The notes: generated by a model from the sequence alone, not told the origin. A DNA stretch of 64,000 bases from an uncultured delta proteobacterium (GCA_963792965.1 CAWBYW010000016.1:115925-179924), one strand, 5' to 3'; positions 1-64,000 are shown, numbered from the stretch's first letter. A program made the numbers and translations.

Positions 1-45
1 TAGGGGACATAGGCGTTATACTTAAAGTATGGTTGTTGTTAATAC

Positions 46-231
46 ATGAAGGAGGGTACTATGGCCAAAGTCAATGTCTCAAATAAGGTCTTCTGGTGGG
101 TTGCGCTGATCCTGCTCATTGTCGGAGGCGTCTCTTTCATTCTCGAACAGCTGGGCGCATTCGCGCTGCCGTATGAGCTAACGGGGTGGCTGCTGTTGAT
201 TTCAGCGCTCCTTTTTGCTTTCGTGGTCTGA
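46..231 (+). CDS. hypothetical small membrane protein
   Basis: 61-aa ORF with two hydrophobic helices (WWVALILLIVGGVSFIL; WLLLISALLFAFVV). A GGAGGG Shine-Dalgarno precedes the internal ATG at 61, so 61..231 may be the true CDS. A terminator follows at 291-322. Confidence 0.45.
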   Translation: MKEGTMAKVNVSNKVFWWVALILLIVGGVSFILEQLGAFALPYELTGWLLLISALLFAFVV

Positions 232-290
232 CGCCAGCGTCGCTCGCCGGCGCGTCAGCCTCACAAAGCGATTTATCAGAGTGTTTCCAA

Positions 291-322
291 GGTGACCCTT
301 CAACGGGTCACCTTTTTATTTT
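291..322 (+). terminator. intrinsic terminator hairpin between convergent small ORFs
   Basis: Stem GGTGACCC (291-298) / GGGTCACC (305-312), 6-nt loop, then TTTTTATTTT (313-322). Confidence 0.6.
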
Positions 323-339
323 CCCGGTTACCCCCCCAC

Positions 340-570
340 TCAGCGCTTTTTGACTGCCGCGACAACGAGGAGGATAATCCCTCCGGTCAGTGCGACGACT
401 CCCAGTATCGGCGGGAGGGGAAGCGTTTTGGTCTTCTCCGCGGTCACGTGCAAGGGACCGAGCTCGACGACATTCTCCTGGGTTTTATAGGTAATGCCGT
501 GATAGGCCAGCGCCACGACCCCTAACACGATCAGAATAATCGCAACGACAATCATGACTTTTGGCTTCAT
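340..570 (-). CDS. small two-TM membrane protein, DUF3185-like
   Basis: 76-aa ORF with TM helices at both ends flanking a short soluble loop. The layout resembles the DUF3185 family; this is recalled, not searched. Confidence 0.5.
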   Translation of the reverse strand: MKPKVMIVVAIILIVLGVVALAYHGITYKTQENVVELGPLHVTAEKTKTLPLPPILGVVALTGGIILLVVAAVKKR

Positions 571-786
571 CCAGACCTCCCATTCCCTTGCTTCTGGTAA
601 CCGCTTTACCCGCCATGATCATCCCTGGATGGCGCGACTAACGCCGGGATAGCGGCATCCCCTGCTACGTCGACCCTTGCTTAAAGTATTATTTACGCGA
701 TACGTTACGGTCCCTTTGAACTCTGCGTCGAGCGGAGTGTAGGTTTCGGTGAGAAGGGACGGCTGCGCCGGCGCGGCCGTGACGTC

Positions 787-2666: not shown

Positions 2667-3985
2667 CTATTTCAATCGTTTGACGATCTCAAAGACTTTT
2701 GCCAACGCCTCCCCCTCGTCGAACGTGAGGATCTTCCCCCAGTGATGGACGACCCGCCCCCCACGATCGTGGTCTTGACATCGAGCCCCCGCGCGGAATA
2801 GACGAGGTGGGACTCGTACGAGAAGAGCGGCGCGGCATGGGGACGCGACAGGTCGACGACGATCAGGTCCGCGGCCATGCCCGGCGCAAGGCTCCCCACC
2901 TCCGTTTCCAGCCCGAGGGCCTCGGCGCCAAGGAAGAGCGAGAGCGAGAGGACGGTTTTGGCGTCCATCTGGGCGGGGTCCTTCGAGGCAAGCTTATGCC
3001 CCTTGGCGCAGAAGTCCATCTCGTAGAAGAGGTCCTGGCGGTTGTTGGAGGCCGGCCCGTCGGTGCCGAGCCCCACAGGGATGCCGGCCGCCAACATCGC
3101 CGGCACCGGGGCAAGGCCGTTGCCGAGCTTGGCGTTGCTGCCCGGGCAGTGTACCACGGACGCGCCGTACTCGGCCAGGATATCGATCTCCTCGGGCTCG
3201 ACGTAGACGGCATGCACCGCGATAAAGGTATCGGAAAGAATACCCTCCCGCGCGAGGAGGCGCACGGGTGTCGCCCCGTATTTCTGCGTGACCGTCTTCA
3301 CCTCCGCCTCCGACTCGGCAAGGTGGGTGAAGAGCGGCACTCTGTACTCGTCGCACAGCTCCTTTACCGTGCGGTATGTCCGGGGGGAGGCGGTGTAGGG
3401 GGCGTGAACGAAGAGGGCCGGGGTCACGAGGCCGCCGCCCTTCTTTTTCGTTTCTTCGAGGAATTGCCTGAGGACCGATAGGCGCCCGCCGTCGTCCTTC
3501 CACTGGGGCTGCGGCCCATCGATGACTCCCTGGGCCGAGATCGCCCTTATCCCCGCGGCGCCGAAGGCCTCGGCGGCAGAGGAGGCAAAGAAATAGGCGT
3601 CGGCGCACGTGGTGATGCCCGAGCGCAGCATCTCGGCGGCCGACACGAGGCTCCCCCAGTAGACCATGTCGCGTCCCATGAGTTTTTCTTCGGCGGGTAT
3701 GATCCGATTAAATAGCCAGGTGTCAAACGGGAGGTCATCGGCATAGCCGCGCAGGACCGACATGGCGGCGTGGGTGTGGCCGTTGATGAGCCCCGGCATG
3801 ACGAGGTCGCCCCCGGCATCTAAGGTGCGCTCGGCCTCAAATCCGTGGCCGATCTCGAATTCGTCGCCGACCGCGACAATCACCCCGTCTTTTATGCAGA
3901 CGATGCCGCTCGGAAAGCGGCTCCCCCGCTCATCGAAGGTGAGGACCGGACCACCCTTGACGATGAGGTCGACCTTCTCGGTCAT
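2667..3985 (-). CDS. mtaD: MtaD-type amidohydrolase (5-methylthioadenosine/S-adenosylhomocysteine deaminase family), 3' end frameshifted as assembled
   Basis: Metal-binding motif GLINGHTHAAMSVLRGYADDLPFDTWL and the HAESEAE and TDG segments are present. The ORF-track product (2672..3985) turns to low-complexity sequence after ...VKTTIVGG. Adding one base to the C run at 2757-2762 gives ...IVGGRVVHHWGKILTFDEGEALAKVFEIVKRLK with a stop at 2667, which parallels the C-terminus of the paralog at 4974..6302. Confidence 0.8.
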
Positions 3986-4380
3986 ACGACCACCGACTCG
4001 TCATCGGCGCGCCAGGCCGGGTCAACGATGCAATAGAAGACGAGGTCGGAATTGCCCGTGTTCTCGGTCCACTGCAGCGCCCCGGGGGGGACGTAGACGA
4101 GGCTGCCCGCCGAGACCTCGGCCGCCTCATCATTCACGTGCATGATGCCCCGTCCCTCGGTGACGATGAAGACCTCGGAGGACGATTTCAGCCGGTGGGG
4201 CAGGTTCCGGGAGCCCTTCGGCATGCGCGCGACGGCGATCGAGTAATGCGTCGCGACGGGGTCCTTCATGGGCGACATGAGCTCCTTGATCGGCGTCGTG
4301 TCGGCGGCCGTGATGCCCGGCGTCTTATGCGGTTCAACGATTTTCATTTGTTCTACCCGATTAGAGGATTTTGGTGACAC
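3982..4380 (-). CDS. cupin domain protein
   Basis: Cupin_2-like core (HRLKSSSEVFIVTEGRGIMHV...VYVPPGALQWTEN). Its stop overlaps the mtaD start in an ATGA overlap at 3982-3985. The ORF-track start is GTG at 4380. The ATG at 4347 is more likely, because 4367-4391 belongs to a repeat element. Confidence 0.65.
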   Translation of the reverse strand: MSPKSSNRVEQMKIVEPHKTPGITAADTTPIKELMSPMKDPVATHYSIAVARMPKGSRNLPHRLKSSSEVFIVTEGRGIMHVNDEAAEVSAGSLVYVPPGALQWTENTGNSDLVFYCIVDPAWRADDESVVV

Positions 4381-4453
4381 TCTACTTAATTAAGACTCTA
4401 TAAATTGACGGGGTAGATCTCAATTAAAATTAAGCATGGTGTCCCCCTAATTC
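4367..4453. repeat. imperfect palindromic element, degenerate copy of the 4888-4971 element
   Basis: The arm at 4428-4453 (AATTAAGCATGGTGTCCCCCTAATTC) matches the 4946-4971 part of the 4945-4971 arm at 23/26 positions. The arm at 4367-4391 (GATTTTGGTGACACTCTACTTAATT) is its imperfect inverted partner. Spacer is about 36 nt. The element abuts the DUF3795 stop codon. Confidence 0.6.
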
Positions 4454-4860
4454 TACTTCCTTCTCCCGCACTCAGAACAAACACCTTTATGAACACAAAT
4501 AGTCCCACCACAATCGGGACATGTCCATCTTGATTTTTCGTTTAGTAGAAATTTTGTAATACCCAATTTTTCAATATTCCCGAGATTTTCAATCATGCTC
4601 ATAGTATACTTTGTTCTATATCTTTTGTCCAAATGCTTCAATGTATCGCAGGGAAAATCATTGCATTGAAAACAAAACGTTGCCTTTCCATTCTTGAGGA
4701 CTTCGCAGATTTTGATTTTGCATGTGGTGCGGGTAATCGGCTTGCCAACATCCGAGCCTCTGCATCCACGACATTTGTTACTTTCTCTCAGATATGCTAA
4801 GCAAACACCGCAATTCATCCCACAGGGGGCGATGAGCAAAGCTGCGCCTAATGATGCCAT
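4453..4860 (-). CDS. Cys-rich DUF3795-like protein (putative zinc-binding)
   Basis: 135-aa ORF with CGxxCxxC, CxxC and CPDCGG...CSECG clusters typical of DUF3795. It is visibly AT-rich compared with both neighbours and is flanked by the two palindromic elements. Confidence 0.65.
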   Translation of the reverse strand: MASLGAALLIAPCGMNCGVCLAYLRESNKCRGCRGSDVGKPITRTTCKIKICEVLKNGKATFCFQCNDFPCDTLKHLDKRYRTKYTMSMIENLGNIEKLGITKFLLNEKSRWTCPDCGGTICVHKGVCSECGRRK

Positions 4861-4887
4861 GCTATTACTATATATTATTTCCCAAAA

Positions 4888-4971
4888 GAATTAAGGGGAC
4901 ACAATACTTAATTCACTTTTCTTTGCTTATCCTGAAGGCCCGTTGAATTAAGTATTGTGTCCCCTTAATTC
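4888..4971. repeat. perfect 27-bp inverted repeat with 30-nt spacer (long hairpin, possible terminator or mobile-element end)
   Basis: GAATTAAGGGGACACAATACTTAATTC (4888-4914) is the exact reverse complement of 4945-4971. The element begins 2 nt after the stop (4974-4976) of the upstream minus-strand deaminase gene. On the minus-strand RNA it is followed by UUUUGGG. Confidence 0.8.
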
Positions 4972-4973
4972 GC

Positions 4974-6302
4974 TTACCCCACCGACTTCCTCACCCTCCC
5001 CGACAGCTCCCGCGCCTTAGCCATGATGTCGGCCGCATCCGCCTTCGTTAGCTTGCCGTCGTGCACCAGCACGTCCCCGTTGACCAGCACGTCCCGCACG
5101 TCGGTGGATTTTGCGGCGTAGACGAGGTGCGAATAGGGGTTGTAGACAGGCGTCAGGTGGGGCTTATTGAAATCGACGATGATGAGGTCGGCCTTCTTGC
5201 CGACGGCGAGCGTCCCCACCAGCTCACCGAGCCCGAGGGCTCGCGCGCCGTTTTTTGTGGCGGTCTGGAGGACGGTCTTTGCCTCCATGTGCGTCGGGTC
5301 CGCATCGTAGACCTTGTGGAGCTTTGCCAGCGTATCCATCTCCCCGAAGAGGTCAAGGTCGTTGTTGCTGGCGCATCCGTCCGTGCCCAGCCCCACGACG
5401 ATCCCCCGCCCAAGGTACTTGTGCACCGGCGCCCATCCCGAGGCGAGCTTCATGTTGCTCTCGGGGTTGGTGACGACGGTAACATTCCTTTCACGCATGA
5501 TCTCCATCTCGGCATCATCCACCCAGACGGCGTGGAGCGCCGTGAATCTCTCGTTGAGGACGCCCAGGTCGTCCAGATACTCAAACGAGCTCTTGCCGTG
5601 CTTCTTCTTCACGTCCTCGATGTTTGCACGGGACTCCGCCACGTGGACGATGCAGCGCACCCCAAACCCGTCCGAAATCTCCTTTGCCCGCACGAAGAGC
5701 TCCGGCGAGCAGGTGTCCAGCGCGTGGGGCTGGATGGAGGGAACGATAAGGGGGTCGCTCTGCCACTTCTTGATGAAGTTTTCCGTATACTCGAATCCCT
5801 TCTCGATGGGCCCGTAGTTCGGGGAGGGAAAGTCATAGAGCACCTCGCCGAGCACCCCCCGCATCCCCATCTCTTTGGCGGCTCTCGCCGCCGAGTCCTC
5901 GAAGAGGTACATGTCACAAAAGGTCGTCACCCCCCCGAGCAGCATCTCCGCGCAGGCGAGCTTCGTCCCCCAGTAGACGAAGTCGTCGTCGAGGTTGGCC
6001 TTCTCGGCCGGAAAGATATAGTCGCATAGCCACCGCTCCAGCGGCAGGTCGTCGGCGATCCCCCGAAAGAGGCTCATGGCCGCATGCGTGTGCCCGTTGA
6101 CCAACCCCGGCATCACGACGCATCCCGTCGCGTCAATCTCGGTTCTTGCCGCCCAGCGACGGGCGGCATCGCTCCGTTTCCCCACGAAAGCGATCGCGTC
6201 GCCTACGACCACGACCGCGCCGTCTTCAATCGGGACCCCGTCCTCCATCGTCAGGACGATCCCGCCCGAAATAACTACGTCCGCGCCGATTCTCTCCGTC
6301 AT
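4974..6302 (-). CDS. MtaD-type amidohydrolase/deaminase, second paralog
   Basis: This is the C-terminal 442 aa of ORF 4974..7271, starting at MTERIGADVVISGG (ATG 6300-6302). Motifs GLVNGHTHAAMSLFRGIADDLPLERWL, HVAESRANIE and GLGTDGCASNN are present. Its ATG overlaps the TGA of the restored PNP frame (ATGA). Confidence 0.8.
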   Translation of the reverse strand: MTERIGADVVISGGIVLTMEDGVPIEDGAVVVVGDAIAFVGKRSDAARRWAARTEIDATGCVVMPGLVNGHTHAAMSLFRGIADDLPLERWLCDYIFPAEKANLDDDFVYWGTKLACAEMLLGGVTTFCDMYLFEDSAARAAKEMGMRGVLGEVLYDFPSPNYGPIEKGFEYTENFIKKWQSDPLIVPSIQPHALDTCSPELFVRAKEISDGFGVRCIVHVAESRANIEDVKKKHGKSSFEYLDDLGVLNERFTALHAVWVDDAEMEIMRERNVTVVTNPESNMKLASGWAPVHKYLGRGIVVGLGTDGCASNNDLDLFGEMDTLAKLHKVYDADPTHMEAKTVLQTATKNGARALGLGELVGTLAVGKKADLIIVDFNKPHLTPVYNPYSHLVYAAKSTDVRDVLVNGDVLVHDGKLTKADAADIMAKARELSGRVRKSVG

Positions 6303-7163
6303 TCCTCTTTTGTTTCTCCTATCCGCCGGATTACCGCGGCGATCAGTCTGATGAGGTCCGGACCGGTCCTCTTCTCCCGTGGCGATGATATCGTCGATCA
6401 GGATGGGAGCCATGGCGTCGGGGAGGTTAACGTTGGCCACGAGCGAAAAGCCCAACACCCGCATCCTCACGTGCGCCGCGGTGATCACCTCCATAACCGT
6501 CGACATGCCCAGGGCGTCGGCACCGAGGCCGCGAAACATCCTGGTCTCGGCCGCCGTCTCGAGGCTCGGGCCCAAGACCCCGATATAGACCCCCCGGTTG
6601 ACGTGGATGCCCAGCCTGAGCGCCTCCTCTTCGGCGATCTCGATGAGCTCCCGATCATAGGCCTTCGTCATGTCGGGAAAGCGGGGGCCCAACGTGTCGA
6701 GATTGGGGCCGACGAGCGGGTTACGGCCCGTGAAGTTGATCTGGTCGTGGATAACCATGATCTCCCCCGGCCGAAAGAGCGGATTGAGGCCGCCGGCCGA
6801 ATTGGTGATGATGAGGGTGTTGATCCCAAGGGCGAAGAGGGCCCGGACGGCAAAGGCGATCTCGGGGGCCGTATACCCCTCGTAGAGGTGGAACCGGCCC
6901 TCCATGGCCGCCGTCTCCACCCCGGCGATCCTCCCGATATGCAAAATCCCCGCATGACCCTCCGCGGTCGAGACGGGGAAGTGGGGGATCTCCCCATACG
7001 GGATCGAAACCTCCGTCTCCATGACCGCGGAAGTACCGGAAAGTCCCGTGCCGAGGATCACGGCCACGCGCGGACGGAGGTTTGTCTTGATGAGGATGTG
7101 ATCGGCCGCCTCGTGGATCTCTTTGATCGCTTTGTCTGCATCGCGGGGGGGCTGGACTGTCAT
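6299..7163 (-). CDS. purine nucleoside phosphorylase family (PunA/MTAP-like), frameshifted near the 3' end as assembled
   Basis: N-terminal part of ORF 4974..7271 from MTVQPPRDADKAIKEI (ATG 7161-7163). PNP motifs are present: VAVILGTGLSG, HFPVSTAEGHAG, MEGRFHLYEGY, ITNSAGGLNP, GPSLETAAE, GADALGMSTV. A one-base shift near 6370-6376 restores ...ATG(K/E)RTGPDLIRLIAAVIRRIGETKEE with a stop at 6299. Confidence 0.75.
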
Positions 7164-7313: not shown

Positions 7314-10300
7314 TTACTTTGCGTTCGGCCGTATGGGCTTGGGCGGGATCGGGGTTTTCTTCTCCTCTTTTGGGATCTTTTCGTCGACCGTGGAGAGAAG
7401 CTCGGTGATCTCCGCATCGTCGGGGAGCCCGTTTTTAGCCAGCTTCAGGTACTTCTTTGCCTCGGTATAGTTCTTCATCTGAAAATAGATGAGCCCGAGC
7501 GCTTTTTCCGCCGGCGCGTTTTCGGCCTTGAGGACGAGGGATCGATTGGCCAGCTTCAGCGCCCTATCGAGCTTCTTGTTTTCTTTCGCGTACAGGAGTG
7601 CCGTGTCGGACCAGACCGAGTAGTCGCTCGGGTCAAGCGCGAGCGATTTCTCGTAATATTTGAGGGCCTCCGACACCTTTCCGTTCCTGAGGTAGTAATC
7701 GCCGATGGTACGGAAGGTGGCATAGTCGTTCGGCTTGAGCTTGACCAGCGCAAGGTAGGCCGCCTCCGCCTTTTCGGGGTCGGGTTTGGCCTCATAGGTC
7801 TCGGCAAGCCCGAGCATCGCGGGGTAGTTGTCCGGTTTTGTCGCCAGCGCCGCCGTCAACAGCTCAACCGCTTTGTCATACTGCCCCGTGCGGGAATAGC
7901 ACTGGCCCAACAGATAGTAGACATCGGTGTTGTCGGGGGCCATCTCCCGCGCCTTTTCGAGATACCCGATGGCTTCATCAAACTTCCCGGCGATCCTCAG
8001 CCCGTCGCCAAGGTCGATGTAGGGCCTCGGGTCGTCGGGGTAGCTCTTCATGAGGTTGGTGTTGAATTCACGCAGCTTATCGAGCGCAACGTCGTAATCC
8101 GGCTTTATCGAGAGACAACGCTTGAGGGAGAGCATCGCCTCTTCCGACCATCCCCGCACGGCGAAGATGACGCCGAGGTTGTAGTGGGCCTTGTAGTTTT
8201 CGGGCTGGATGCGCACGACGTTGTTGAAGGCCGAGATCGCCTCGTCATAGGAGCCGAGCTTGACGTAGTTGGTGCCGAGGACGAAATAGAGGTCGGCGTT
8301 GTCCGGCTCGATCTCAAGCGCTTTCCAGATCGTATCGACGGCGAGCTTGTATTGGCCGGTGTTGGAGTAGCACTCGGCGACGTAGAGCATTGCCTGGATG
8401 TTTTTCGGATCCCGTGAGATCACGTCCGCAAAGACCCCGAGCGCCTTCTCGTAGAGTCCCCCGTCGAAATAGGTCTGCCCGAGCAGTATCTGCGCGTCGC
8501 TATAATCCGGCTTGACTTCAAGCGCCTTTCCGAGGGCCTTGGCCGCTTCGTCGTAGTTGGCCAGTTGGTGATAGGCAAGCCCGAGCATGAACAGGCCGTC
8601 GACGTATTCCGGGGAGTAGGAGACCGCCTTCTTGAAATATTCGAGGGCTTCCGGCGTCTTGCCGCCTTCCATCTTCAGAATACCGATCTGATAGTAGGCC
8701 AGGTAGTTATCCGGGGACTGCTCGATCGATTTTTCGTAGTTCAGGGTGGCATTGTCGGTATCTCCGAGCTTCCAGTAGACCTGGCCGAGGCTGTAATAGA
8801 CCAAAAACTGGTTGGGATCGAGCTTGAGCGACTCCTCGTAGGCCGCAATCGACTTGTCGTATTCTTCCCGGTAGTAGTAGACCTTACCGACCCCCTTGTA
8901 GGAGCGGGGGTTGGCCGGATCGATGTCTTGCGCGCGCTCGTAGTAGTCCATGGCCTTGTCGAGCTCACGGTTATCGAGGTAGGTCTCGGCCATGAGGATC
9001 AGCGCATCAAAAAAGCGGGGGTCGATCTTGACTGCCATATCCAAGAGCGCCATGCCGTTGGTCTTTTCTCCCTTTGCGATATAGATATCCGCAAGCGAGT
9101 AGAGGGCCGTCGTGTTCTTCGGGTCGATCTCGACGACCTTCCGGAAGGTCTCGATGGCCGTGTCCTTCTGGCCCAGAAAGGCATAGAGATTGCCGAGGGC
9201 GAGGTAGGCGTCGACATACTTCGGATCCGTGTCGATGGCCTTCTTAAGTATGCGACGATGGCCGATTTCACGTCGCCGGCCTCGACATAGATCCTGGCCC
9301 TGTTATAGTATCCGGGCGCGTATCCCGGTTGTATCTTTATGGCCTTATCGATCGCGGCGATCGCCTTTTTCTTCTCCCCCATGGCAAGGTAGACACGCGA
9401 GAGCTCCACGTAGGCCTCGTAGTAGTCGGGCTTGAGCTTGATGGCCCGCTCCAGCGTGGCGACGGCATCACCGAACCTGCCGAAGGACGCATACGACCTG
9501 CCGATGGCAAGGTACGCCGGGTAGAAATCGGGCTTTATCTTCAACACGCCCTCATAGACCGATATCGCCCGGTCGATATCGCCGATGGCCAGCGCCACTC
9601 TCCCGATGTGGTCGTATCCGTCCACGAAATCGGGCCTGAGCTCCACGGCCTTCAGGTATGCCGCCAGGGCGTCCCGTGATTTCCCCTGGGCCTCCAGCAC
9701 CGCCCCGAGCTCGTCGTATGCCAGGTAGTGGTGGAATCCAGGGCGACGGCCTCGTTGAGGAACTGCTCGGCCATGACGTATTCGCCCTTCTTGAAGTAGG
9801 CGACGCCGAGGCCGTAGTCTATATCGGCATCCTTCGCGTCAAGGGCGAGTGCTCGGGAGAAGACCCCGATGGCGTTATCGGTGTCGCCCGTCAAAAGGTA
9901 GATCGTCCCGAGCTCGGAGAGGACCTTCGGGTTGTCCCCGGCAAGGGCCAGCGCCCGGGTAAGGACTGTCACCGCCTCGGCGTATTCCTTCTGAGCGGAG
10001 AAGACTTCGCCCTTGAGGATATAGATGGAAGGATCGGCGGGGCGCAGCTTCTCGGCCCTCGCGAGAAAGGAGAGCGCACCCTCAAGGTTCCCCGAGGCCA
10101 CCGCGTTTCTTGCCGAGAGGATGAGCGCGTCGAAGTGGTTGGGATCGATGGTCAACAGCGCGTCGAGCGCCGTTTTGGCCCCGGCGAAGTCTCCGAGGTC
10201 ATACGACAGCTTCGCCATGAGGAGGAGCCCCTCCGGGGAATCCTTCGCCGTCTCGGCCGCCTTCTTATACGCGGCGAGGGCTTCTTTCGTCAGGCCCTCG

Positions 10301-28614: not shown

Positions 28615-28618
28615 CGTC

Positions 28619-46524: not shown

Positions 46525-46787
46525 CTATACCATACTTTGACGGATTTCTCAAGGAAAATAAGGCTCTATGGGCGACGAACCTGACCCTCCCGCGCGGTTC
46601 TCAGTTCGGAAATGGAGATTTTGACCCTCAGGCGAGCGAAGGGCTCGGGGGGCCGAGCCCCGCCAAGACAAACGATTCCGCCGCTCATTATCTGACGGTA
46701 AAGGTAACTGAAGTCAGCTCCGCTCCACCCGAATCGGAGCCGTTCATGCGCAGGTCGTAGCTTCCGGGGGTCGTCGGGCCACAAGGC

Positions 46788-47792
46788 TTATAAATCCTCA
46801 ATTTCTTTAACCAGACTTCGGTCCAGCCGCGCCCCGTGGCTTGCCACCACCTGGGCGGAGATGTAGGCCGCGATCCTGCCGGCCCTCTCCATGTCTATTC
46901 CGTGCGTGACCCCGTAGAGGATTCCCGCCGCGTAGGCGTCCCCCGCCCCGTTGGTGTTGACGACCCGGACGGGGTAAATCGGCACCCTGATGACACGGTC
47001 GTCGGCCTTGATGAGGCTTCCCCGCTGCCCGAGCTTGACGACGGCCAGATCGCACAGCTCGTATATCAGAGACAGCGCCTGTTCCTCGTCATCCTTTCCG
47101 GTGAACGCCCTGGCTTCAAGCTCATTGACGAAAATGATATCGGCGTATTCCTTGACAAGGTCGCGGATCGGCTCAAGGTTCCTTCCGATGAGGGCGGGGT
47201 CGGCAAGATCGATGGAGACCCGTCCCCCCGACTCATGCGCGATTTTCATCGCGTGGACGCAGGTCTCCCTCAACAGGGGGTCCTCCAGCTGGTACCCCTC
47301 AATATGAAGGGTCTTGCTCTCCCTGATGTCCTCATCAAGGATATCTTCCTTCCTGAAATGGATTGCCGCGCCCAGATGCGTGGCAAACGTCCGCTCGGAA
47401 TCCGGGGTAATGAAGGTGATAGCGTGGCCGGTGCCTGCGGACTTGTGCCTGGAGAGCTTGGATGCGACCCCGTCTACGATCGTCCTCTGCTCATAGACCG
47501 TCCCGTGGTAGTCGTCGCCGATCTTGCCGAGGAAGACGGCGCTCCCCCCGAGGGCGCTGACGCCGGCCAGGGTGTTGGCCGATGAGCCCCCCGGGGCGGT
47601 CTTTACCGTGTAGCTCTCCAGCATCTTGAGGATCTTGGTGCTCTGGGCTTCGTCTATCAGGTGCATCTCGCCCTTCTTCATATCGATCTCGGCCAGCACT
47701 CCCTCGTCCACCTCGACGATGAAATCCAACAGCGGGCTCCCGATTCCGCAGACATCGTATCGCTTCACCGAATGTTCCTCAGGCTTCATCAT
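46788..47792 (-). CDS. PfkB-family carbohydrate/nucleoside kinase (adenosine kinase-like)
   Basis: 334-aa ORF. GGSSANT near the N-terminus and the NTNGAGDAYAAG anion-hole motif near the C-terminus. Confidence 0.75.
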   Translation of the reverse strand: MMKPEEHSVKRYDVCGIGSPLLDFIVEVDEGVLAEIDMKKGEMHLIDEAQSTKILKMLESYTVKTAPGGSSANTLAGVSALGGSAVFLGKIGDDYHGTVYEQRTIVDGVASKLSRHKSAGTGHAITFITPDSERTFATHLGAAIHFRKEDILDEDIRESKTLHIEGYQLEDPLLRETCVHAMKIAHESGGRVSIDLADPALIGRNLEPIRDLVKEYADIIFVNELEARAFTGKDDEEQALSLIYELCDLAVVKLGQRGSLIKADDRVIRVPIYPVRVVNTNGAGDAYAAGILYGVTHGIDMERAGRIAAYISAQVVASHGARLDRSLVKEIEDL

Positions 47793-47832: not shown

Positions 47833-49409
47833 CTACCGTCCGAGCAGGAGGCGACCGATAATCGACCGGATCGTCTCGTCATCACGCCCGGTCGAGTCGA
47901 CGCCGAGGGAATCGGGCCTCTCCGATGCGTCGAGTGGCTCGCGGAGCAGCTTTTGCTTCAGGTAGACCTCAAAGGTCGCGTCCGACGCGTTTTTCTCCTT
48001 CATCCGCTTGGCAATCCTTCTCTTGACCACGTCGTCCGGGCACGTGACGGCAACTATAAGGAAACGCGCCCCGGTCTTTTCGGCGACGCTCTTTGCCTCC
48101 TGCCTCTCTTTGTGCTTGAGGAAGCATGCGTCCAGGATCACGGATCGGTTGGCCCCGAGCGCTTTTTCGGCGCGCGCATACAGGGTAGCGTAGGTTTTCC
48201 TGGTCATCGTGGTCGAGTAGATCCCGGATCCGAAACGGTCGTAGTGGTGAGCCAGAGGGCTTTGCCCCGCCAGCTCCTTTCTCACCTCGTCGGAGCGATA
48301 GACAATGCTGTCCATTTCGTCGGCAAGATCGTCGGCGATTCGGCTCTTGCCCGTCCCGGCAAGGCCGAACATGATGATCAAGAACGGGCGCGTCTCCCTC
48401 ACCGCATAGTGATGGGCAAGGTGAAAATAGCCCCGGGCCCGCCCGGCCGCCTCTTCTTTTTCTTCTGAGTCGATCTCCGCCTCTCCCAGCTCGAAGCTCA
48501 GCACCTTTCCCCGGGTAAAGGCGTGGTAGCAGGCGTAAAAGTCTATCAGCTCGCCGAGCCGTGTGTCCCCCGAGAGCCGCACATATTCTTCGACGAAGAA
48601 GCGCGGCAAGTCCCGGATACCTGAAGGAGTCCAGATCCATCTTGAGAAAGGCGATATCCTGGGCCACGTCCCCCATCCGGAATCGCTCGTTGAACTCGAT
48701 GCAGTCATAGATATAGATATCCTTTGTGGTGATGCAGATGTTTCTCGAGTGGAGGTCTCCGTGCCCCTCCCTGATAAACCCGCCCGCGACCCTCTCCTCC
48801 AAGAGGTCGGCCTTCTCCCTGAAGAAGCGCTCGGTATAGTCCTTGATCGTCTCAAAGTCGAGGGGCGGTATCGTCTTTGAGATATACTTTTTCGTCTGGT
48901 TGAAGTTCTCGTCGCAGTTGAGCCCGATCACAGGGATCGTCCCGTATCGGTTGACGTGCTGGCCCGTGCGCGCGGCGCGGTAAAACGGGACGAGGACCCC
49001 GACTATCCGCGCGATGTCGCCTCTCCCGACCTTCCCCGCGGCAAGCCCCACGTCCATCATCCCCCGCGCCGGGAGCCGCCTCATCACGACGGCGAAGTCT
49101 ATGACGGTGCCCGCGCCCTCTGACCGCGATGCGTGTCCCGTCATCCGTAATCGGCACCACGCCGAGATAGACATCGGGGCAGAGCCGCGCGTTGAGCGCG
49201 ACTTCCTGCTCGCAGTAGAACTTACGCTTTTCCAGCGTGGTGAAATCGAGGAATCCGAAGTCCACCGGCTTCTTGATCTTGTAGACGAGGTCGCCGGCGA
49301 TAAATACGACCGAGATATGGGTCTGGATGACCTCGGCCCGCTTGGGCCAGTGGGGAAAGCTCCCGGGCTTGCTGAGCGACTCGATGAGCGCCGTCAGGGG
49401 CATGGACAA
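47833..49409 (-). CDS. bifunctional APH-like phosphotransferase / P-loop (AAA_33-type) kinase, two frameshifts as assembled
   Basis: The reading path is ORF 48852..49409 (N-terminus, [20 protein letters not shown]), then ORF 47969..49174 (kinase core, [10 protein letters not shown]...[10 protein letters not shown]), then ORF 47833..48855 (Walker A GLAGTGKS). Frame changes lie near 49140 and 48620. Confidence 0.65.
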
Positions 49410-49493: not shown

Positions 49494-50567
49494 TTACGAG
49501 AAGAGGTCGTCGAAAAATCTTTTCTTCGTCTTGATTTTCAACAGACTGAAAATGTCCCGCTGAATGTCCCGGATGCTCTTTCCGGCCTCAACCATGACGT
49601 CCTGTTTGCGCCACTCGTCGAGCCGAAACGGGTGGTCCGACAGGCCCGACAGGTCAAAGCCCTCATCGTGGGCCTTCTGTACGAATCCCTGCGGCAGCTC
49701 GTTGGGAAGCGTCACGTCGTTCATGATCGCCCACACCATCGTCCAGAGCCGCGCCGTGTTGAAATGGTTGTAGCCGCCGCCCCCGAGCGCGATCCATCGC
49801 TTTGCGTTCTGGCGCATCTTCGTTACGGCGTGGACGTAGCCCTGGGTGGTGAGGTTGAGGTTTGCCAGGGGGTCGGTCAGCATCATGTCGCAGCCCACCT
49901 GGCTGACCAGGACGTCCGGGGAGAACTTCTCGATGACCGGGACAAAAATATCGTCAAAGGCCCACATAAAGGTCCGGTCGTCGGTCCCGTAGCGGAGCGG
50001 AACGTTGAGGGAATACCCTTTCCCCTTGCCGGCGCCGATCTCCTCGGTAAAGCCCGTCCCGGGGAAGAGGGACTTGCCGCTCTCGTGAAACGAGAGGGTA
50101 AGGACCCTGTCGGTATCGTAGAAGGCGGCCTGCACGCCGTCGCCGTGGTGCGCGTCGATGTCGACGTACATCACCTTGAGCCGCTTCTTGACCAGGTACT
50201 GGATCGCGATGACGATATCGTTGACGAAACAGAATCCCGCGGCCCGATCCTTCATGGCGTGGTGCATACCGCCGGCCATGTTGAAGGCGGCCCAGGCCTT
50301 GCCTTCGGCCACCGTCCGCGCCGCCGTCATCGTGTTCCCGAGGACCATCAGGGAAAAATCGAGGATGCCGGGGAAGACCGGGTTATCTCCCGGGCCGATG
50401 TTATATTTCGCGTGCTCGGGCAGGTAGGTGCCGTCGTTTGCGCTCTTCAACGCCTCCATATAGCCCGCGTCATGGTAGGAGAGGGCCTCCTCGATCGGCG
50501 CCGCCGACGAAGAGAGATAGAGGGAATTTTCGAGCTTATCCAGCCCATATGCGCGGATCAGCTCCAT
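49494..50567 (-). CDS. histone deacetylase-family protein (AcuC/acetoin-utilisation type)
   Basis: GGMHHA, FCFVNDIV and DIDAHHGDGVQ motifs. About 28 further in-frame conserved-looking codons (KKTALIIPEGFEKFNYGPGHPLKWERVTYA) extend to about 50650 without an ATG, GTG or TTG start. Confidence 0.8.
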   Translation of the reverse strand: MELIRAYGLDKLENSLYLSSSAAPIEEALSYHDAGYMEALKSANDGTYLPEHAKYNIGPGDNPVFPGILDFSLMVLGNTMTAARTVAEGKAWAAFNMAGGMHHAMKDRAAGFCFVNDIVIAIQYLVKKRLKVMYVDIDAHHGDGVQAAFYDTDRVLTLSFHESGKSLFPGTGFTEEIGAGKGKGYSLNVPLRYGTDDRTFMWAFDDIFVPVIEKFSPDVLVSQVGCDMMLTDPLANLNLTTQGYVHAVTKMRQNAKRWIALGGGGYNHFNTARLWTMVWAIMNDVTLPNELPQGFVQKAHDEGFDLSGLSDHPFRLDEWRKQDVMVEAGKSIRDIQRDIFSLLKIKTKKRFFDDLFS

Positions 50568-50756
50568 CGCGTAGGTAACCCGCTCCCATTTGAGCGGATG
50601 TCCCGGCCCGTAGTTGAACTTCTCAAACCCCTCGGGGATGATCAGGGCGGTCTTTTTTGAGCGCTTGAAAATAGCTAACCTCCTGAAATCCTGCCTCCCA
50701 ATCAGCTGTATTGAGACCCACCGATATCGACGCGGCGACCTTAGCTTCGCTCAGTC

Positions 50757-52086
50757 CTACGGGGCGCCGAACGCCATGCTGGCGAAGGTGACGGTGGAAT
50801 CCGCGCTGTCCATCACCGTGCTGTCGTAGGAGAGGAGCCTCCCCTTCTTGTTTTCCAGCACCCTGAGCATCGTATAGATCGCCGGAAAGCCGCAGATCCT
50901 GCGTTTGTCGTCGTCCGACGCGATATGCTCGAGGAATCGATCCGCGTCTCCCGACGCGATCACCTCGATCATCTCATGGTCCCTTTCCCCGACGGTGGCC
51001 AGGTGCTCCCGCGTGGGGGGATGCTCGTCCCCGTATTTCACCCCGACGTGGGCAAAATCGACCGAGGCAATCAGCACGACCCTTCCCCGAAACGACGCCA
51101 CGGCCCCCTTGAGGGCGGCGATGAAATCCTCCACGACCGTCTTGACCGGCGCCAGCCGCTCCGAATAGAAGATCGAGTGGGGAAAGGAGGTGAGGATCGG
51201 CGCGATGGTAAACGGCGCATCGCCCAGCACGTACTTGAGAAAGACGGTCTGAAACTCGACGGTGTGCTCCGTGCGGTGGATCATCTCGCCGGTAAAGAGC
51301 CGGTCCCCGAAGCGCGCGCCCAGATCGTCCATGAACTCACGGTTCGTCCGGGCAACTCCGAACGGCGTCATGAAGTCCTTTTTCGTCCCGGCATAAAGCT
51401 GTTCGATCCCGGCGTGGCCGACGCCGAGCACCACGTAGAGGTCCGCCCTCGGCGCGCGCGCCAGCGCCGAGTAGGCGTGGGCGAAGCAGGTCCCCCGGAG
51501 GCGATGCTGATGTGGGGGGCAAGGAGCGCCGAAAGCCCGTCCCGGTCGGCGCCTGTACCATTGATCGGGTCCCCACGGCCGCCCCACCGTCGACCCCCGC
51601 GAAGTAGGAGGAGAACTCCTCTTTGAGCTTCTCAGGATCGGTCTGGTACCCGGCGCCCATATGGACCGCGGGACGGATCTGTGCGCGGAAAAAATCCCCC
51701 TCTATACGCCGCTTCTCTTTCAGGAACGATTCGCTCACCAGGAAATAGCTCTTGTCCAGCTCTTCGGCCACCTTCCTGATGTCTTCCAGGTCAAGGGTCG
51801 CGCCTGAATGCTTTTCTACTTCGGCCTGGATCTCCCGGAAGGTCTTGGTGCCGTCAAAAAATTGCATAACGGCCACGACCTCCCGGGGGACAAAGAGAAC
51901 CCGGTCCGTGTAAAGTAAGGGGTCCCTGAGCACGAGCCCCTCCTTGCCGCCGACGCTCATCGGGACGAACTCGACGTTTCTGAGCTTGGGATAGTCGTTA
52001 TCGGCCAAATCTGCACCTTTCTCGAATCGCGTGAGACCGCAAACTCGGAAAGTCCGGTTAAAGGGACTCTTTCTATTACGTATCAC
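50757..52086 (-). CDS. MEMO1-family protein (AmmeMemoRadiSam system protein B-like), two frameshifts as assembled
   Basis: ORF 51337..52086 is the N-terminal extension. A third-frame piece reads DPINGTGADRDGLSALLAPHISIASGGP. ORF 50757..51587 carries VLGVGHAG, EHTVEFQ, DFAHVG and ICGFPAIY. Shifts lie near 51575 and 51490. Confidence 0.7.
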
Positions 52087-57135: not shown

Positions 57136-57533
57136 ATGATAGTCTTAAGAGCCATTGCTATTTGGGTCGTTGTGATCTTCGCCGAGGTCCTTCACGGCGT
57201 CTGCGCGAACGCTATTTCTTGTGCCGTACGTGGGTGATTTCAGGGCGCGCCAGATCGGCGTATTCACGGGGTCCGTCATAATTTTTGCTATTGCTCTTAT
57301 ATCCGTGCGATGGATCAGCGCGTCCCGTGCCGCAGAATTGCTGGCGGTCGGATTTCTATGGCTTGGCCTGATGCTTGCCTTTGAGTTTCTCTTCGGACAT
57401 TTCGTCTTAGGCTATTAGCTGGCAGCGGCTCGCCGCAGACTACAACCTGACGAAGGGCGGCCTCATGTCGATCGGTATGCTGGTGCTGACGCTATCGCCC
57501 TTGATAGCCGGAAAGGTGCGGGGTCTGGTTTGA
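57136..57533 (+). CDS. small conserved-looking membrane protein (~130 aa), two frameshifts as assembled
   Basis: MIVLRAIAIWVVVIFAEVLHG... (ATG 57136) continues into ORF 57221..57418 after a shift in the TTT run at about 57215. It then continues into ...SWQRLAADYNLTKGGLMSIGMLVLTLSPLIAGKVRGLV after a shift in the TT run at about 57415. Stop at 57531-57533. Confidence 0.4.
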
Positions 57534-60011: not shown

Positions 60012-60443
60012 TTATCCTCGGGCGAGTGCCGTCTTGACGCACGCGGCTCCCAACAGCACCACGATCACGGTCCCGACAATCTGGGGCGCGATGAAGAAAT
60101 AGACCCAGCCCAGCACGGCCACCGCGACGAAGCTCGCGAAGAGCGCCCAGGAGACGGGGAGCAGGGCCGCCCGTGCCTTTTCATCCAGCCCCCCGAGGTG
60201 CCACGTCAGCACCGCCGAGAAGAGCAGAAAAACCGAAAAGAGGAGCCCAAACCCAAGGTACATCCCGCCCCACGTAACGGTCGAGCCCATGATCTCAAAA
60301 TCGACTGACTTCATCAAGGAAAGCACGCCGTCGGCCGCCACCCCGTGGTCGGCGTGCGACAGCATCCCCCCGAACGTGTGGGAGAGGAAAAAGATGACCA
60401 ACAGATACGAACAGATCCGATAGAGATTGAAATACCTGGCCAT
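60012..60443 (-). CDS. hypothetical four-TM membrane protein
   Basis: 143-aa hydrophobic product from the internal ATG (MARYFNLYRICSYLLVIFF). The upstream part of ORF 60012..60782 is Arg-rich and overlaps rdgB, so it is unlikely to be coding. Confidence 0.5.
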   Translation of the reverse strand: MARYFNLYRICSYLLVIFFLSHTFGGMLSHADHGVAADGVLSLMKSVDFEIMGSTVTWGGMYLGFGLLFSVFLLFSAVLTWHLGGLDEKARAALLPVSWALFASFVAVAVLGWVYFFIAPQIVGTVIVVLLGAACVKTALARG

Positions 60444-60601
60444 GCCATTCCTCCTTATACAGCGGTGACGGAAATACGTTTTGATTATATCACGATCTAT
60501 CGGGGCCACGACGCGGCCGGCGCGGAGAGAAATCTCCTTTCCGGCGCGACGATCCATAGGCGGAGTGGGGGACCCAGCAGAATCTCTGGACATGTGTCTG
60601 G

Positions 60602-61213
60602 TCACAGGAAGTCCGGCAGGACCCCACATAACGCCTCGACTGCGCGCCTGCGGTGGCTGATTTCGTTCTTCTCGGCCTCCGTCATCTCCGCGTAGGTCTT
60701 GCCGAGCGGCGGATAAAAGAAGATCGGGTCGTAGCCGAACCCTTTGCTCCCACGTGGCGCACGGATAATCTGCCCTGCGCACTCCCCCCTGACGACCATC
60801 TCCCTTCCATCGGGCGATACCAGCGCGATCACCGCCACGAAGCGCGCCCCTCTCTCCCCTTCCGGGACCCCGGAAAGCTCGCGCAACAGCTTCTCGTTGT
60901 TTTGCTCGTCGGAGGAGCCTTCCCCGGCGTATCGTGCCGACATCACCCCCGGTGCGCCGCCCAGGGCATCCACCTCTATGCCGGAGTCGTCGGCCAAGGC
61001 TACGTGCGCGGTGCGACGCGCCGCTTCCCGGGCCTTGATGAGGGCGTTTTCCTCAAACGTCTTGCCGGACTCGACCACGTCGGGATAATCGGGAAAGTCG
61101 GAAAGAGAACGCAGAGTGACGAGCCTCAGGAGCCCCAGTCCGTCCATGATCCGGCCGAGTTCGTTGAGCTTTCCCCGGTTCTTGGTGGCGACGACGATCT
61201 CAGGAGCGCTCAA
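60602..61213 (-). CDS. rdgB: dITP/XTP pyrophosphatase RdgB/HAM1
   Basis: [33 protein letters not shown] and FGYDPIF motifs. The probable TTG start at 61211-61213 overlaps the rph stop. Confidence 0.85.
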
Positions 61214-61931
61214 TGATCTCTCCGAGGAGCTCCTTCTGTTTTGCGATGAGCCGCGCGATCCCGTCCCGGGCAAGCTCCATCATCATATCGAGGGTCTTCT
61301 GATCAAACGGGTGGTTTTCCGCGGTGCCCTGGACCTCCACGAAGAGGCCGGATCCCGTGATGACGAAGTTCATATCGACCTCGGCGGCGGAATCCTCCTT
61401 GTAGTCGAGGTCCAGGAGTATCTTTCCGTCCACCACCCCCGCGCTGATTGCCGCGATATAGTCCCTGATCGGGAACCGGGAGATCTGCCCCGACTTCTTC
61501 AGCTTCAACAGCGCGTATGCCAGCGCCACGAAACCGCCCGTGATGGAGGCCGTCCTTGTGCCGCCGTCGGCGCAGATGACGTCGCAGTCGATCCAGATCG
61601 TCTTTTCGCTCAGGGCCGACAGATCGACCACCGCCCTGAGCGCCCTGCCGATGAGCCGCTGGATCTCAAGGGTGCGGCCCCCCGCCCGCCCCTGGGTGAC
61701 CTCGCGGGTCATCCGGGTTTCGGTCGAGCGGGGCAGCATCCCGTACTCCGCCGTCACCCACCCGTCCCCGGTGCCCTTGAGAAAGTTCGGCACCCGATCC
61801 TCCACGGAGGCGGTGACGACCACCCGGGTGAGCCCCATCTCGATGAGGACGCTCCCTTCCGCGTAGGGGATATAGTTGGGCGTAATGACAACGGGACGTA
61901 TGGCGTTAAGCTGCCTCCCGTTTCTCCTCAT
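61200..61931 (-). CDS. rph: ribonuclease PH
   Basis: [14 protein letters not shown]..., [19 protein letters not shown] and [18 protein letters not shown] motifs. 243 aa from the internal ATG of ORF 61200..62270. Confidence 0.9.
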
Positions 61932-62472
61932 CCAGTCTACCTGCTTCGCATTCTTGTATGGTTTCAAGGCCCACCCTGTATACGTGAGGGTACGAATCAT
62001 ACTGGTTTCGCCTCTGCCTGTCAAGGGATAACGACCCTCCCGCCCAACGCTCGCGACGTGCCGCCGGAATACAGGAATATGAAGGAAAACAGGAATGGCG
62101 GGGAAAGCCGCTGCCGCACACAACCGACCGCATGCAACGGTACGGAAGATGACCTGCATCAGTGGAACAAAAGTGCAAGTTATTTTGCATCCTGGCAACA
62201 TCTCGTTATCATTAGAAATATCGGTATCTGTTCCTGACAGGATAAACTCGATGAAACACCGTTGAAACATGCATGCAACGCCTCAGAAACCGCGTTAAGA
62301 TGCTGTGCGATAACCTGCTGTAATCATTATAGTATTTGGCCACGGACATCGGGTGGATCGTGCCCGCATATAGGCATGGATATTGCTTAATATATGGCCA
62401 GACACATACGGTTTGGTATATGAGATCTCCGGCAACCGTGTGTATTCATGCAACGAGAGAAAGGAGGAGAGA

Positions 62473-63168
62473 ATGAATAAGAAAAGACTGATGGTGCTTG
62501 ATAACGATTCCCAATTCGTCGGCTCTCTCAACACCGCGTTGGGCAAGACCTATGACGTGCTGTGGGTCAAGGAAGTCGCCGCCGCCGTCCAGACCATTCA
62601 TTCATGCGAGGCGGACGTCATCCTCGTCAACTTCGCCGTCGGCGTCGAGGGGGGGTTCTCCGTAATCCGGGAGGCAAAGAAGTGGGCGATCCCATCGGTC
62701 GTCGTCACCCATCTCTCGACGGAGGAGATGGCCATCGAGGCCCTCAACTCCGGCGTCTCGTATTATATCAAGAAGCCGGTCCTTCTGGAGGACCTGGCAA
62801 AAGCCGTCAACCGGGTCGCGGGCATCCCGAGCGCCGATATGGATACCATCGAGCGCGTGAGATTCTTCATCGTAGAAAATTACATGAAAGACATCTCGGT
62901 CAACGACCTTTCGGACTCGGTCGGCATCAGGCGGCAGAAGATCTTCTACCACTTCAAGAAGCGGTACGGCAAGGGGATCAAGTCATATCTGCGCGACATC
63001 AGGATGCAGAAGGCGCAGGAGTTGCTGGAGACCACCGACCTTGCGATCTACCGTATCGCCAAGGCCGTCGGATATAATCACTTCGGCTATTTTTGTCGGG
63101 AATTCAAGCGCCTCTACCACCTGACCCCCAAAGAGATCAGGAGGGGCCGCTACCAGCAGGCCAGCTGA
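62473..63168 (+). CDS. receiver-like domain plus AraC-type HTH transcriptional regulator
   Basis: ATG at 62473 after AAGGAGGA. N-terminal CheY-like fold (MVLDND...VILVNF...YIKKP) and a C-terminal HTH_18 pattern (IAKAVGYNHFGYFCREFKRLYHLTPKEIR). Confidence 0.7.
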   Translation: MNKKRLMVLDNDSQFVGSLNTALGKTYDVLWVKEVAAAVQTIHSCEADVILVNFAVGVEGGFSVIREAKKWAIPSVVVTHLSTEEMAIEALNSGVSYYIKKPVLLEDLAKAVNRVAGIPSADMDTIERVRFFIVENYMKDISVNDLSDSVGIRRQKIFYHFKKRYGKGIKSYLRDIRMQKAQELLETTDLAIYRIAKAVGYNHFGYFCREFKRLYHLTPKEIRRGRYQQAS

Positions 63169-63295
63169 TTCTTACTTGCTCAAGGCGCATGCCGGCTCCA
63201 GGGAGGGAAGGGGCCGTTGCCGGTGATCCGGGGAGAGGAGGATGACGCCGATCTTTCCGGCGCCGGGGACGTGAATAGAGGGGAGGACCGAGCCG

Positions 63296-64000
63296 TTATC
63301 CGTCCTGCTTCTGCCATTCATCGAGGCGGCAGCAGGAAACGCGGTGCCCTTTCTCCACTTCGACCATGGGCGGGACGAACTCGCAGCACGACGGGTCGTC
63401 CACCGGGCAGCGGGTATGAAACCGGCATCCCGGCGGCGGTGATATGGCCGACGGGATCTCTCCCCTCGGGATGGCGTGGGCCCTGCGCATCTTCGGGTCC
63501 GGCACCGGAACCGCAGACAGGAGGGCCCGTGTATAGGGATGCATCGGGTTGTGAAAAACCTGGTCCACCGTGCCGATCTCCACGATGATTCCGAGATACA
63601 TGATCGCGATCCGGTCGCAGATATATTTCGCGGTCGCAAGGTCGTGGGTCACAAAGAGGTAGGTGAGCGATAGATCTTCTTTCAGCTCTCGCATCATCTC
63701 GAGGATCAGCGCCCGCACCGAAACGTCCGCCATGGCGATCGGCTCGTCGGCCACCACCAGCTTGGGGGAAAGGACGAGTGCCCGCGCAAGGACCACCCTC
63801 TGCTTTTGCCCCCCCGAGAGGAGATGGGGATAGCGCTTGTAGATGTCGTTCACGGGGGTGAGCGCCACCCGCCTCATGACTTCCTTGACCCGCTCTTCCC
63901 GTTCTTTCTTATTTCCGATTTTCTGAATCACGAGAGAATAGCCGATATTATCGCCGACCGTCATGCGGGGGTTCAGCGACGCATGCGGGTCCTGAAACAC
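63296..64000 (-). CDS. oligopeptide/dipeptide ABC transporter ATP-binding protein (OppF/DppF-like), 5' end outside the window
   Basis: LSGGQKQRV signature, Walker B VVADEPIAMADVS, H-loop FVTHDL, and the Cys-containing oligopeptide C-terminal extension (HPYTRALLSAVP...PPGCRFHTRCP). Confidence 0.8.
   Translation of the reverse strand: MFQDPHASLNPRMTVGDNIGYSLVIQKIGNKKEREERVKEVMRRVALTPVNDIYKRYPHLLSGGQKQRVVLARALVLSPKLVVADEPIAMADVSVRALILEMMRELKEDLSLTYLFVTHDLATAKYICDRIAIMYLGIIVEIGTVDQVFHNPMHPYTRALLSAVPVPDPKMRRAHAIPRGEIPSAISPPPGCRFHTRCPVDDPSCCEFVPPMVEVEKGHRVSCCRLDEWQKQDG

Follow-up and report, generated by a model that had tools for sequence, protein, structure and literature searches.

Clustered single-base frame breaks in a 64-kb stretch of an uncultured delta proteobacterium are very probably long-read consensus errors without a homopolymer link

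Background

Genes interrupted by frameshifts are numerous in pseudogene-rich genomes shaped by reductive evolution, such as that of Mycobacterium leprae, and spontaneous indels in bacteria are usually biased towards deletion. In this study, we examine the frame breaks in a stretch of 64,000 nucleotides from an uncultured delta proteobacterium (GCA_963792965.1, CAWBYW010000016.1:115925-179924; hereafter the window, at its full length), in which an earlier annotation made without database searches (the sequence-only reading) had noticed many conserved genes, selA and two histidine kinases among them, that can be read only by changing frame. The Microflora Danica catalogue of metagenome-assembled genomes was produced from Nanopore data by Flye (meta mode) followed by a single Medaka round, with no short-read polishing, and its authors report Nanopore-associated errors in the low-coverage genomes that it contains (PMC12313526). 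Consensus sequence from R10.4 reads resolves homopolymers to about 10 bases, but about 40-fold coverage is required for a near-finished result (PMC9262707); chimeric population bins and low-coverage errors are elsewhere mentioned only in general terms (PMC8012365).

We report 34 single-base frame breaks in 14 genes of the window and show that neither independent sequence of the same species nor the short-read relatives carry them wherever the comparison could be made. The breaks are very probably consensus errors of a long-read-only metagenome-assembled genome and not mutations of the organism, and their clustering most likely arises from strain mixture or thin read support.

Methods

The catalogue of frame breaks was compiled from frameshift-tolerant protein-to-DNA alignment against intact short-read orthologues, from alignment with near relatives at the nucleotide level and from three-frame reading by hand, alongside codon-usage segmentation trained on the window's own long open frames. 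Protein-to-DNA alignment was performed with a purpose-written aligner that permits frame shifts, with which short-read orthologues were run against the window; the sites in the 4.3-kb kinase were placed on its intact 1567-residue orthologue (P0144, in L014). Sites without an orthologue, namely the PNP C-terminus, two in the TPR gene, the start of the CheY-like gene, the PMT_2/GT39 site and two in the small membrane protein, were resolved by three-frame reading. Gene names are backed by NCBIfam and Pfam.

With the intact ribokinase (46788-47792) as query, species-representative genomes yielded five syntenic relatives with 77-79% protein identity. Two of these are short-read assemblies: L002 (Candidatus Zymogenaceae Zod_maxbin.0311), with a k87 contig name pointing to a short-read de Bruijn assembler, and L004, with a NODE name pointing to SPAdes. 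The other three (L003, L005 and L007) are long-read genomes of Microflora Danica with contig_N names, probably assembled with Flye. The reference orthologues were taken from L002 and from L014, a second stretch of the same contig (JAFGAS010000061.1, an Illumina genome of the same family) that was reached through the large-kinase orthologue. A nearer relative, 86-91% identical to the window with hundreds of substitutions, is represented by the Illumina contigs L015, L016, L038 and L039 of JGI metagenome 3300037878 (the JGI relative). Six Logan contigs of run ERR11596056, from the same species as the window, were reached by exact-protein look-ups, the contig with the selA fragment (L035) only via its 84-residue neighbour.

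Results and discussion

Frame breaks in the window

The window (G+C about 59%) contains 34 single-base frame breaks in 14 genes, 25 of them an extra base and nine a missing base (Table 1). Orthologue alignment, nucleotide alignment and three-frame reading thereby bear out the sequence-only reading, which had estimated about three dozen frameshifts in at least 14 genes; the excess of insertions (binomial p=0.009) had not been remarked on. Seven breaks each were found in selA and the 4.3-kb kinase and four in the 2.5-kb kinase, in keeping with the approximate counts proposed for these genes; the lipoprotein, AAA_33 kinase, Memo-like and small membrane protein genes have two each, and mtaD, PNP, the TPR gene, the CheY-like regulator, PMT_2/GT39, the DUF2138-like gene and ecfA are also broken. 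Every shift amounts to one base, no in-frame stop codon is needed in any of the 14 genes, and the residues flanking the breaks are well conserved. In many places a strong coding signal switches frame on the same strand without a gap, and fragments match consecutive pieces of single profiles, those of selA covering positions 2-69, 73-201 and 306-414 of TIGR00474 and those of the ECF ATPase positions 1-124 and 129-278 of TIGR04521. The total is a lower bound: indel differences from the Logan contigs also occur between genes, where they are invisible to frame analysis.

The aligner called seven shifts in the 4.3-kb kinase, six in selA, two each in the AAA_33 kinase, Memo-like and lipoprotein genes, and one each in ecfA and the DUF2138-like gene, and it called none over about 30 kb of intact window genes. 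False positives are rare, because the control alignment of L004 with L002 also gave zero shifts. Shifts called near gene starts (43935, 43900, 46976, 49416, 59980, 61998) were rejected, since the reference frames begin before the true start. Hand reading resolved the central, poorly conserved part of the 2.5-kb kinase as three successive +1 shifts with a fourth downstream, upon which an apparent in-frame stop at 26326 vanished.

Several sites are supported individually. At the mtaD site the JGI relative (L015, 90.4% nucleotide identity) shows a single coding gap, and the intact 439-residue protein P0131 follows the window's other frame. The JGI gap in the DUF2138-like gene (L038) falls exactly at 42065, and the 624-residue orthologue in L002 is intact. 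The selA event at 45084 came to light only through the L035 alignment. Three-frame reading of PNP gives ...IIATGEE and then, in the +1 frame, GPDLIRLIAAVIRRIGETKEE up to a stop, with Pfam covering only profile positions 1-217 of 233, and the repaired N-terminus of the CheY-like regulator (16 letters) agrees with the orthologue's ...ETIDILLIEDNP. In the PMT_2/GT39 gene, where no orthologue covers the site and three-frame reading was used, coding potential switches frame between 32617 and 32647. Two readings suit the first site of the small membrane protein, the extra base being the T within GTCTGCG (57201-57202) or else one T from the run near 57215. Alignment of a generic TPR protein over 9243-9248 requires a shift at 9246. 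When the reconstructed TPR gene was used as a query, generic TPR proteins crowded out its orthologue, which was not recovered; the C-terminal fragment, searched against representative genomes, yielded only one orthologous fragment, of 268 residues, besides TPR proteins of the generic kind.

Independent sequence of the same species

Logan contig L035 matches window positions 44616-45917 at 98.3%, and each of its six one-base gaps is a window extra base at a frameshift site. The C-terminal 280 residues of its SelA lie in one open frame, with TIGR00474 positions 182-451 unbroken (353 bits; cutoff 268). The remaining five contigs (L001, L037, L040, L036 and L041) together cover 12,890 frameshift-free bases with 14 substitutions and three indels, all of the indels intergenic, so that these breaks are absent from same-species sequence at six of six sites and no extra coding indels appear in the 12.9 kb elsewhere. 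Both indel density (Fisher p=4e-5) and substitution density (p=1e-9) are far higher in the L035 segment than in the other five, with 1.2% substitutions and six indels against 0.11% and no coding indels, in a comparison that sets a single rich segment against contigs found in a biased way. By hand reading of the alignment, about nine of the 16 substitutions are synonymous, a share that would be better explained by real variation between strains with functional alleles than by random noise or by relaxed selection.

Exact look-ups of the repaired regulator and small-membrane-protein sequences gave no match, and no paper was found for the accession of run ERR11596056. Protein searches returned no near-identical intact copy of the reconstructed selA or large kinase, partial genes at contig ends appearing to be unindexed, and a metagenome scan with the reconstructed large kinase returned best relatives at no more than 61% identity and no near-identical contig. 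The intergenic differences between window and Logan contigs comprise one additional A within a run of that base and a complex difference of small size near 304-319, together with an additional T at about 16704. The end of L001 coincides exactly with the C run 2757-2762, and L036 ends (32722) about 80 bases from the PMT_2/GT39 site; these ends, in two contigs only, would fit branching of the assembly graph at polymorphic positions.

Short-read and long-read relatives

Over its aligned coding sequence the JGI relative differs from the window by frame-disrupting indels only at the window's frameshift sites 2757, 42065, 46245, 45857, 45824, 45609 and 45538. L002 with L014 is syntenic with most of the window from about 10.4 to 62 kb (gaps at about 32-37.4 and 54-59 kb), and every tested gene is intact in the Illumina genomes of the family (L002/L014 and L004). 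When the L002 proteins were aligned to the Microflora Danica genomes L003, L005 and L007, each gave 22-28 frame breaks over the 16-17.5 kb of coding sequence covered, compared with zero in Illumina L004. About two-thirds of these breaks are of the insertion type; they are clustered, differ in position from genome to genome and have no homopolymer link. The signature of the window thus recurs in the three Nanopore-only sisters and not in L004, the window's own pipeline probably being the same. The alpha-2-macroglobulin gene, intact in the window, has 10-12 breaks in the sister genomes. In the roughly 17 kb examined, L003, L005 and L007 carry more than one break per kb, denser than the window, and one of those in L007 lies in the ribokinase.

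Clustering

The breaks are strongly clustered, as had been supposed. The variance-to-mean ratio in 2-kb bins is 2.61, a value reached by none of 5000 uniform simulations (p<0.0002); 10.9 empty bins would be expected, and 18 of the 32 are found to be so (p=0.0002), and the densest spot holds seven events in 1.5 kb (p=0.005). The three stretches earlier described as free of frameshifts (10.8-20.1, 27.9-32.6 and 33.2-42.0 kb) are clean in the alignments: no shift is called against the orthologues across 10.4-20.1, 27.5-32.0 and 37.4-41.6 kb, and 32.8-35.8 kb has zero coding indels relative to the JGI relative.

Homopolymer context and rival explanations

The sequence-only reading had described the breaks as mostly homopolymer-associated. 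As a main cause, classical long-read miscalls of homopolymer length are nevertheless improbable. They would account best for the deletions: 2757-2762 is best read as G7 called G6, four to five of the nine missing bases can be read as contraction of runs with a true length of 4-7, and 44% of deletions have a run of at least four nearby against 17-26% expected (17% for runs within 3 bases), a trend that is not significant (p=0.13-0.35). The 25 insertions among the 34 events do not follow, since the runs near them are if anything shorter than at random positions (p=0.93-0.98), and at nucleotide-aligned insertion sites the extra base stands mostly in a run of one or two, with a run of at least three at no more than two sites. 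For all events together, the longest run within 3, 6 or 9 bases does not exceed that at random window positions (p=0.76-0.91). The window contains 333 runs of at least five bases (82 of at least six, 25 of at least seven), about two of which carry an event, and the C6 at 2757 is the only one of the 82 that is hit. Neither placement within runs of about 4-5 bases or more nor a preference for deletions and long runs is therefore observed. The TT, GG and AA examples previously cited are uninformative, because about 70% of sites at which a random base is inserted at random show a run of at least two at that base or its neighbours. The resolution of homopolymers by R10.4 chemistry fits both the clean long runs and the leftover indels outside homopolymers. 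No k-mer was enriched around the insertion sites after multiple-test correction and no local effect of G+C was found; a methylation-motif explanation is without support, as neither marks the sites.

Real frameshifts, with selA, the kinases and other genes of this strain decaying as pseudogenes, had been left open as an alternative, and this we consider very improbable. It is true that the breaks stand in the deposited record, in which the called proteins are fragments, that they are concentrated in particular genes which are on average somewhat less conserved than their intact neighbours, and that the selA segment shows raised substitution divergence from the other assembly. However, the 34 indels are accompanied by zero nonsense codons, the 25 insertions against nine deletions are the opposite of the usual bacterial bias, and six indels per 16 substitutions in the L035 segment, with over half of the latter synonymous by hand reading, are far above natural ratios. 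The species does have an intact selA allele, and the lesions are unshared, L035 being intact at six selA sites and the JGI relative at seven sites; each Nanopore-only sister has like damage in other genes and the Illumina relatives have none, and neighbouring genes of one operon would need independent hits. Programmed recoding (ribosomal frameshifting or transcriptional slippage) or phase-variable repeat tracts have nothing in their favour beyond the frame changes themselves, and their probability is negligible: both programmed frameshifting and phase variation are excluded because the positions are conserved in no orthologue, are absent from the same species in L035, number up to seven per gene, and show no repeat tract or common motif. 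Random residual read errors from thin local coverage, with no strain mixture, deserve more weight, though as the sole cause they are doubtful. The coverage needed by R10.4 assemblies, the admission of low-coverage genomes to the sister catalogue and the absence of a sequence motif or G+C effect at the sites all agree with them, whereas the tenfold excess of substitutions in the one comparable frameshift-rich segment, over half of them synonymous by hand reading, has the look of a second allele. Thin coverage partly overlaps the explanation preferred here and is not opposed to it. It is quite improbable that a minority of the breaks is real and strain-specific (for instance the deletions associated with runs in mtaD, in the TPR gene or in Memo, all of them outside the same-species coverage), or that the clusters mark hot spots of within-population diversity, such as recombination tracts, in the sensor kinases and the selA-ecfA segment.

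Consensus error and its clustering

Consensus error in a long-read-only assembly, then, is the explanation that we favour, and with it the part of the sequence-only reading that invoked long-read error and patchy support or strain heterogeneity as the source of the clustering stands, while its appeal to homopolymer context does not. Most errors would be single stray bases inserted at ordinary positions outside homopolymers, with one-base contractions of short runs as a minority, and they would pile up where the consensus was poorly determined. The difference of the selA cluster from independent sequence, 1.2% against 0.1% elsewhere, suggests that strain mixture or sparse reads at such places may lie behind the clustering. 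Most likely, two close strains were collapsed into one contig, or the assembly took the path of a thinly covered variant, and polishing may then have kept bases of alternative alleles side by side. At 45609 the window carries both the G of the JGI relative and the T of L035 at one wobble position, and 45194 (CAA/CAG) and 45538 (GGA/GGC) show the same pattern. This counts in favour of the reading, although the pattern can be written for any insertion outside a run; about 45% of random insertions would pass, which leaves a formal test over 25 sites without power.

Some further considerations weigh against consensus error. An independent check at the nucleotide level covers 10 of the 34 sites, the others having been placed by means of orthologues with 46-85% identity or by three-frame reading, the latter by itself for the TPR, GT39 and small-membrane-protein sites. 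The Logan contigs were found through exact protein matches and are biased to well-matching regions. L035, being 1.2% different, strictly proves an intact selA allele in the species and not in the window's own strain. Finally, the platform and pipeline of the window, probably Nanopore, Flye and one Medaka round, are judged from the sources and relatives of the window, the sister genomes above all, and from the error signature.

Table 1 Frame breaks in the window and same-species Logan contigs aligned to it
Feature	Position in window	Strand	Reading
mtaD paralogue 1 (2672-3985)	2753-2762	-	One base missing; simplest as G7 read as G6 (+ strand C run 2757-2762)
PNP (PNP_UDP_1)	6365-6366	-	One extra base; last ~25 residues lost, frame fused to mtaD paralogue 2
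TPR gene	9243-9248	-	One base missing; coding potential changes frame at 9245, TPR motif resumes in other frame
TPR gene	9732-9736	-	One base missing; coding potential, three-frame reading, generic TPR alignment (shift at 9746)
4.3-kb PAS histidine kinase	20214-20215	-	One extra base; dropping a T of run 20219-20221 equally good
4.3-kb kinase	22054-22056	-	One extra base; orthologue alignment
4.3-kb kinase	22313-22320	-	One base missing; A5 read as A4 plausible
4.3-kb kinase	22493-22494	-	One extra base, AAA/GG junction
4.3-kb kinase	23045-23047	-	One extra base; orthologue alignment
4.3-kb kinase	23107-23108	-	One extra base, GCGCGC context
4.3-kb kinase	24159-24163	-	One base missing; G4 read as G3 plausible
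CheY-like response regulator	24967-24969	-	One extra base, six codons past ATG at 24988
2.5-kb histidine kinase	25918-25919	-	One extra base; orthologue alignment
2.5-kb kinase	26291-26292	-	One extra base; manual three-frame reading of PAS domain
2.5-kb kinase	26364-26367	-	One extra base in GGGG; manual reading
2.5-kb kinase	26395-26396	-	One extra base; manual reading
PMT_2 (GT39-like) glycosyltransferase	32633-32650	+	One base missing, placed to ~20 bases; PMT_2 domain
DUF2138-like gene	42065	-	One extra A outside any run
Lipoprotein	43497-43510	-	One base missing; orthologue alignment
Lipoprotein	43652-43653	-	One extra base; orthologue alignment
ecfA (ECF transporter ATPase)	44395-44396	-	One extra base; orthologue alignment and TIGR04521 fragments
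selA	45084	-	One extra A near C-terminus, without counterpart in L035; not listed in the sequence-only reading
selA	45194-45195	-	One extra base (window CAAG, L035 CAG)
selA	45538-45539	-	One extra base (window GGACCGC, L035 GGACGC, JGI GGGCGC)
selA	45609-45610	-	One extra base (window ACGTTTTT, JGI ACG TTT T, L035 ACT TTT T)
selA	45824-45825	-	One extra base and neighbouring mismatch (window CAGAC, L035 CAC-C)
selA	45856-45858	-	One extra T (window TTT, L035 TT)
selA	46245-46246	-	One extra base (window TCAGCTT, JGI TC-GCTT)
AAA_33-domain kinase (APH/P-loop kinase of the sequence-only reading)	48604-48605	-	One extra base; orthologue alignment
AAA_33-domain kinase	49109-49110	-	One extra base; orthologue alignment
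Memo-like gene (Memo domain)	51483-51488	-	One base missing; orthologue alignment
Memo-like gene	51570-51588	-	One base missing; G5 read as G4 plausible
Small membrane protein (57136-57533)	57201-57217	+	One extra base; three-frame reading only
Small membrane protein	57415-57417	+	One extra base (TATTAGC); three-frame reading only
Logan contig L001	57-2762		4 substitutions, 2 intergenic indels, 0 frameshift sites; contig end is the 2757-2762 site
Logan contig L037	10948-16740		8 substitutions, 1 intergenic indel, 0 frameshift sites
Logan contig L040	28220-29681		0 substitutions, 0 indels, 0 frameshift sites
Logan contig L036	32722-33936		0 substitutions, 0 indels, 0 frameshift sites
Logan contig L035	44616-45917		16 substitutions, 6 indels, 6 frameshift sites, all absent in L035
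Logan contig L041	62288-64000		2 substitutions, 0 indels, 0 frameshift sites

Other features of the window

In the histone-deacetylase-family gene at 49494-50672 (- strand), none of the codons ATG, GTG and TTG occurs at the conserved N-terminus, the first conserved codon being ATT (50670-50672), 6 bases past AGGAGG. Its orthologues in L002 (Illumina), L003, L005 and L007 have ATC or ATT there after a ribosome-binding site of the GGGGG type, and the more distant L004 alone has ATG, a pattern suggestive of a non-canonical ATY start that has been conserved; in the database, the protein of this gene begins 36 residues later, at 50567.

Between ribokinase and selA, relatives encode a secreted protein of 235-252 residues (L016:1075-1710, L002:10975-11730), which in the JGI relative consists of two tandem copies of about 105 residues. 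At 46525-46787 of the window this gene is reduced to its last 90 bases or so and 636 bases are absent, through either a real deletion or assembly collapse of the tandem repeat.

No clear coding signal was found at 4390-4974 by the codon-usage scan, and the 135-residue open frame at 4453-4860 is absent from the protein collection. The block 4001-6000 has a G+C of 55%, below the window average, and no Rfam or tRNA match, the scans of the whole window with both giving none. At 60012-60782 (- strand), a 256-residue open frame with no Pfam match separates two genes that are direct neighbours in L002, relative to which it seems to be inserted.

Significance and comparison with known systems

The breaks themselves have no biological meaning on the reading favoured here, and the organism most likely has a working selA, ECF transporter, kinases, Memo and others. 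About a quarter of the window's genes are split or truncated in the public record and fragment proteins have entered databases, and inferences of metabolism (selenocysteine synthesis, for example), pseudogene counts and completeness drawn from this or the sister genomes would mislead. Repair tools or filters directed only at homopolymers would miss about three quarters of the errors, which call for re-polishing at read level, for strain-aware assembly or for frameshift repair guided by a reference. On the improbable reading in which the clusters mark hot spots of diversity, the density of such artefacts could offer a read-free proxy for microdiversity in long-read genomes.

Compared with pseudogene-rich genomes, the window differs in lacking stop codons and larger deletions in the broken genes, in its bias to insertion, in the conservation of residues and in the intact allele within the species. 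Homopolymer deletions of the R9 Nanopore type are matched by the events at 2757 (G7 to G6), 22316 (A5 to A4), 24161 and 51579, but most events here are insertions outside runs and the long runs are nearly all correct. A consensus of collapsed strains is resembled in the coincidence of indels with locally raised, largely synonymous divergence, in the two wobble alleles at 45609 and in short-read contigs of the species that end at or near frameshift sites (2762, 32722), a likeness known here from assemblies, for whose insertion signature a published description was not found. The closest match is with frameshift-rich, low-coverage Nanopore-only metagenome-assembled genomes such as those of Microflora Danica. 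Density across the window and the sister genomes L003, L005 and L007 is about one break per 0.6-1.9 kb of coding sequence, and is lower in the window (34 in 64 kb), which probably belongs to the same catalogue. In both, single-base insertions dominate, the breaks form intragenic clusters without a homopolymer link, and the orthologues in Illumina genomes are intact.

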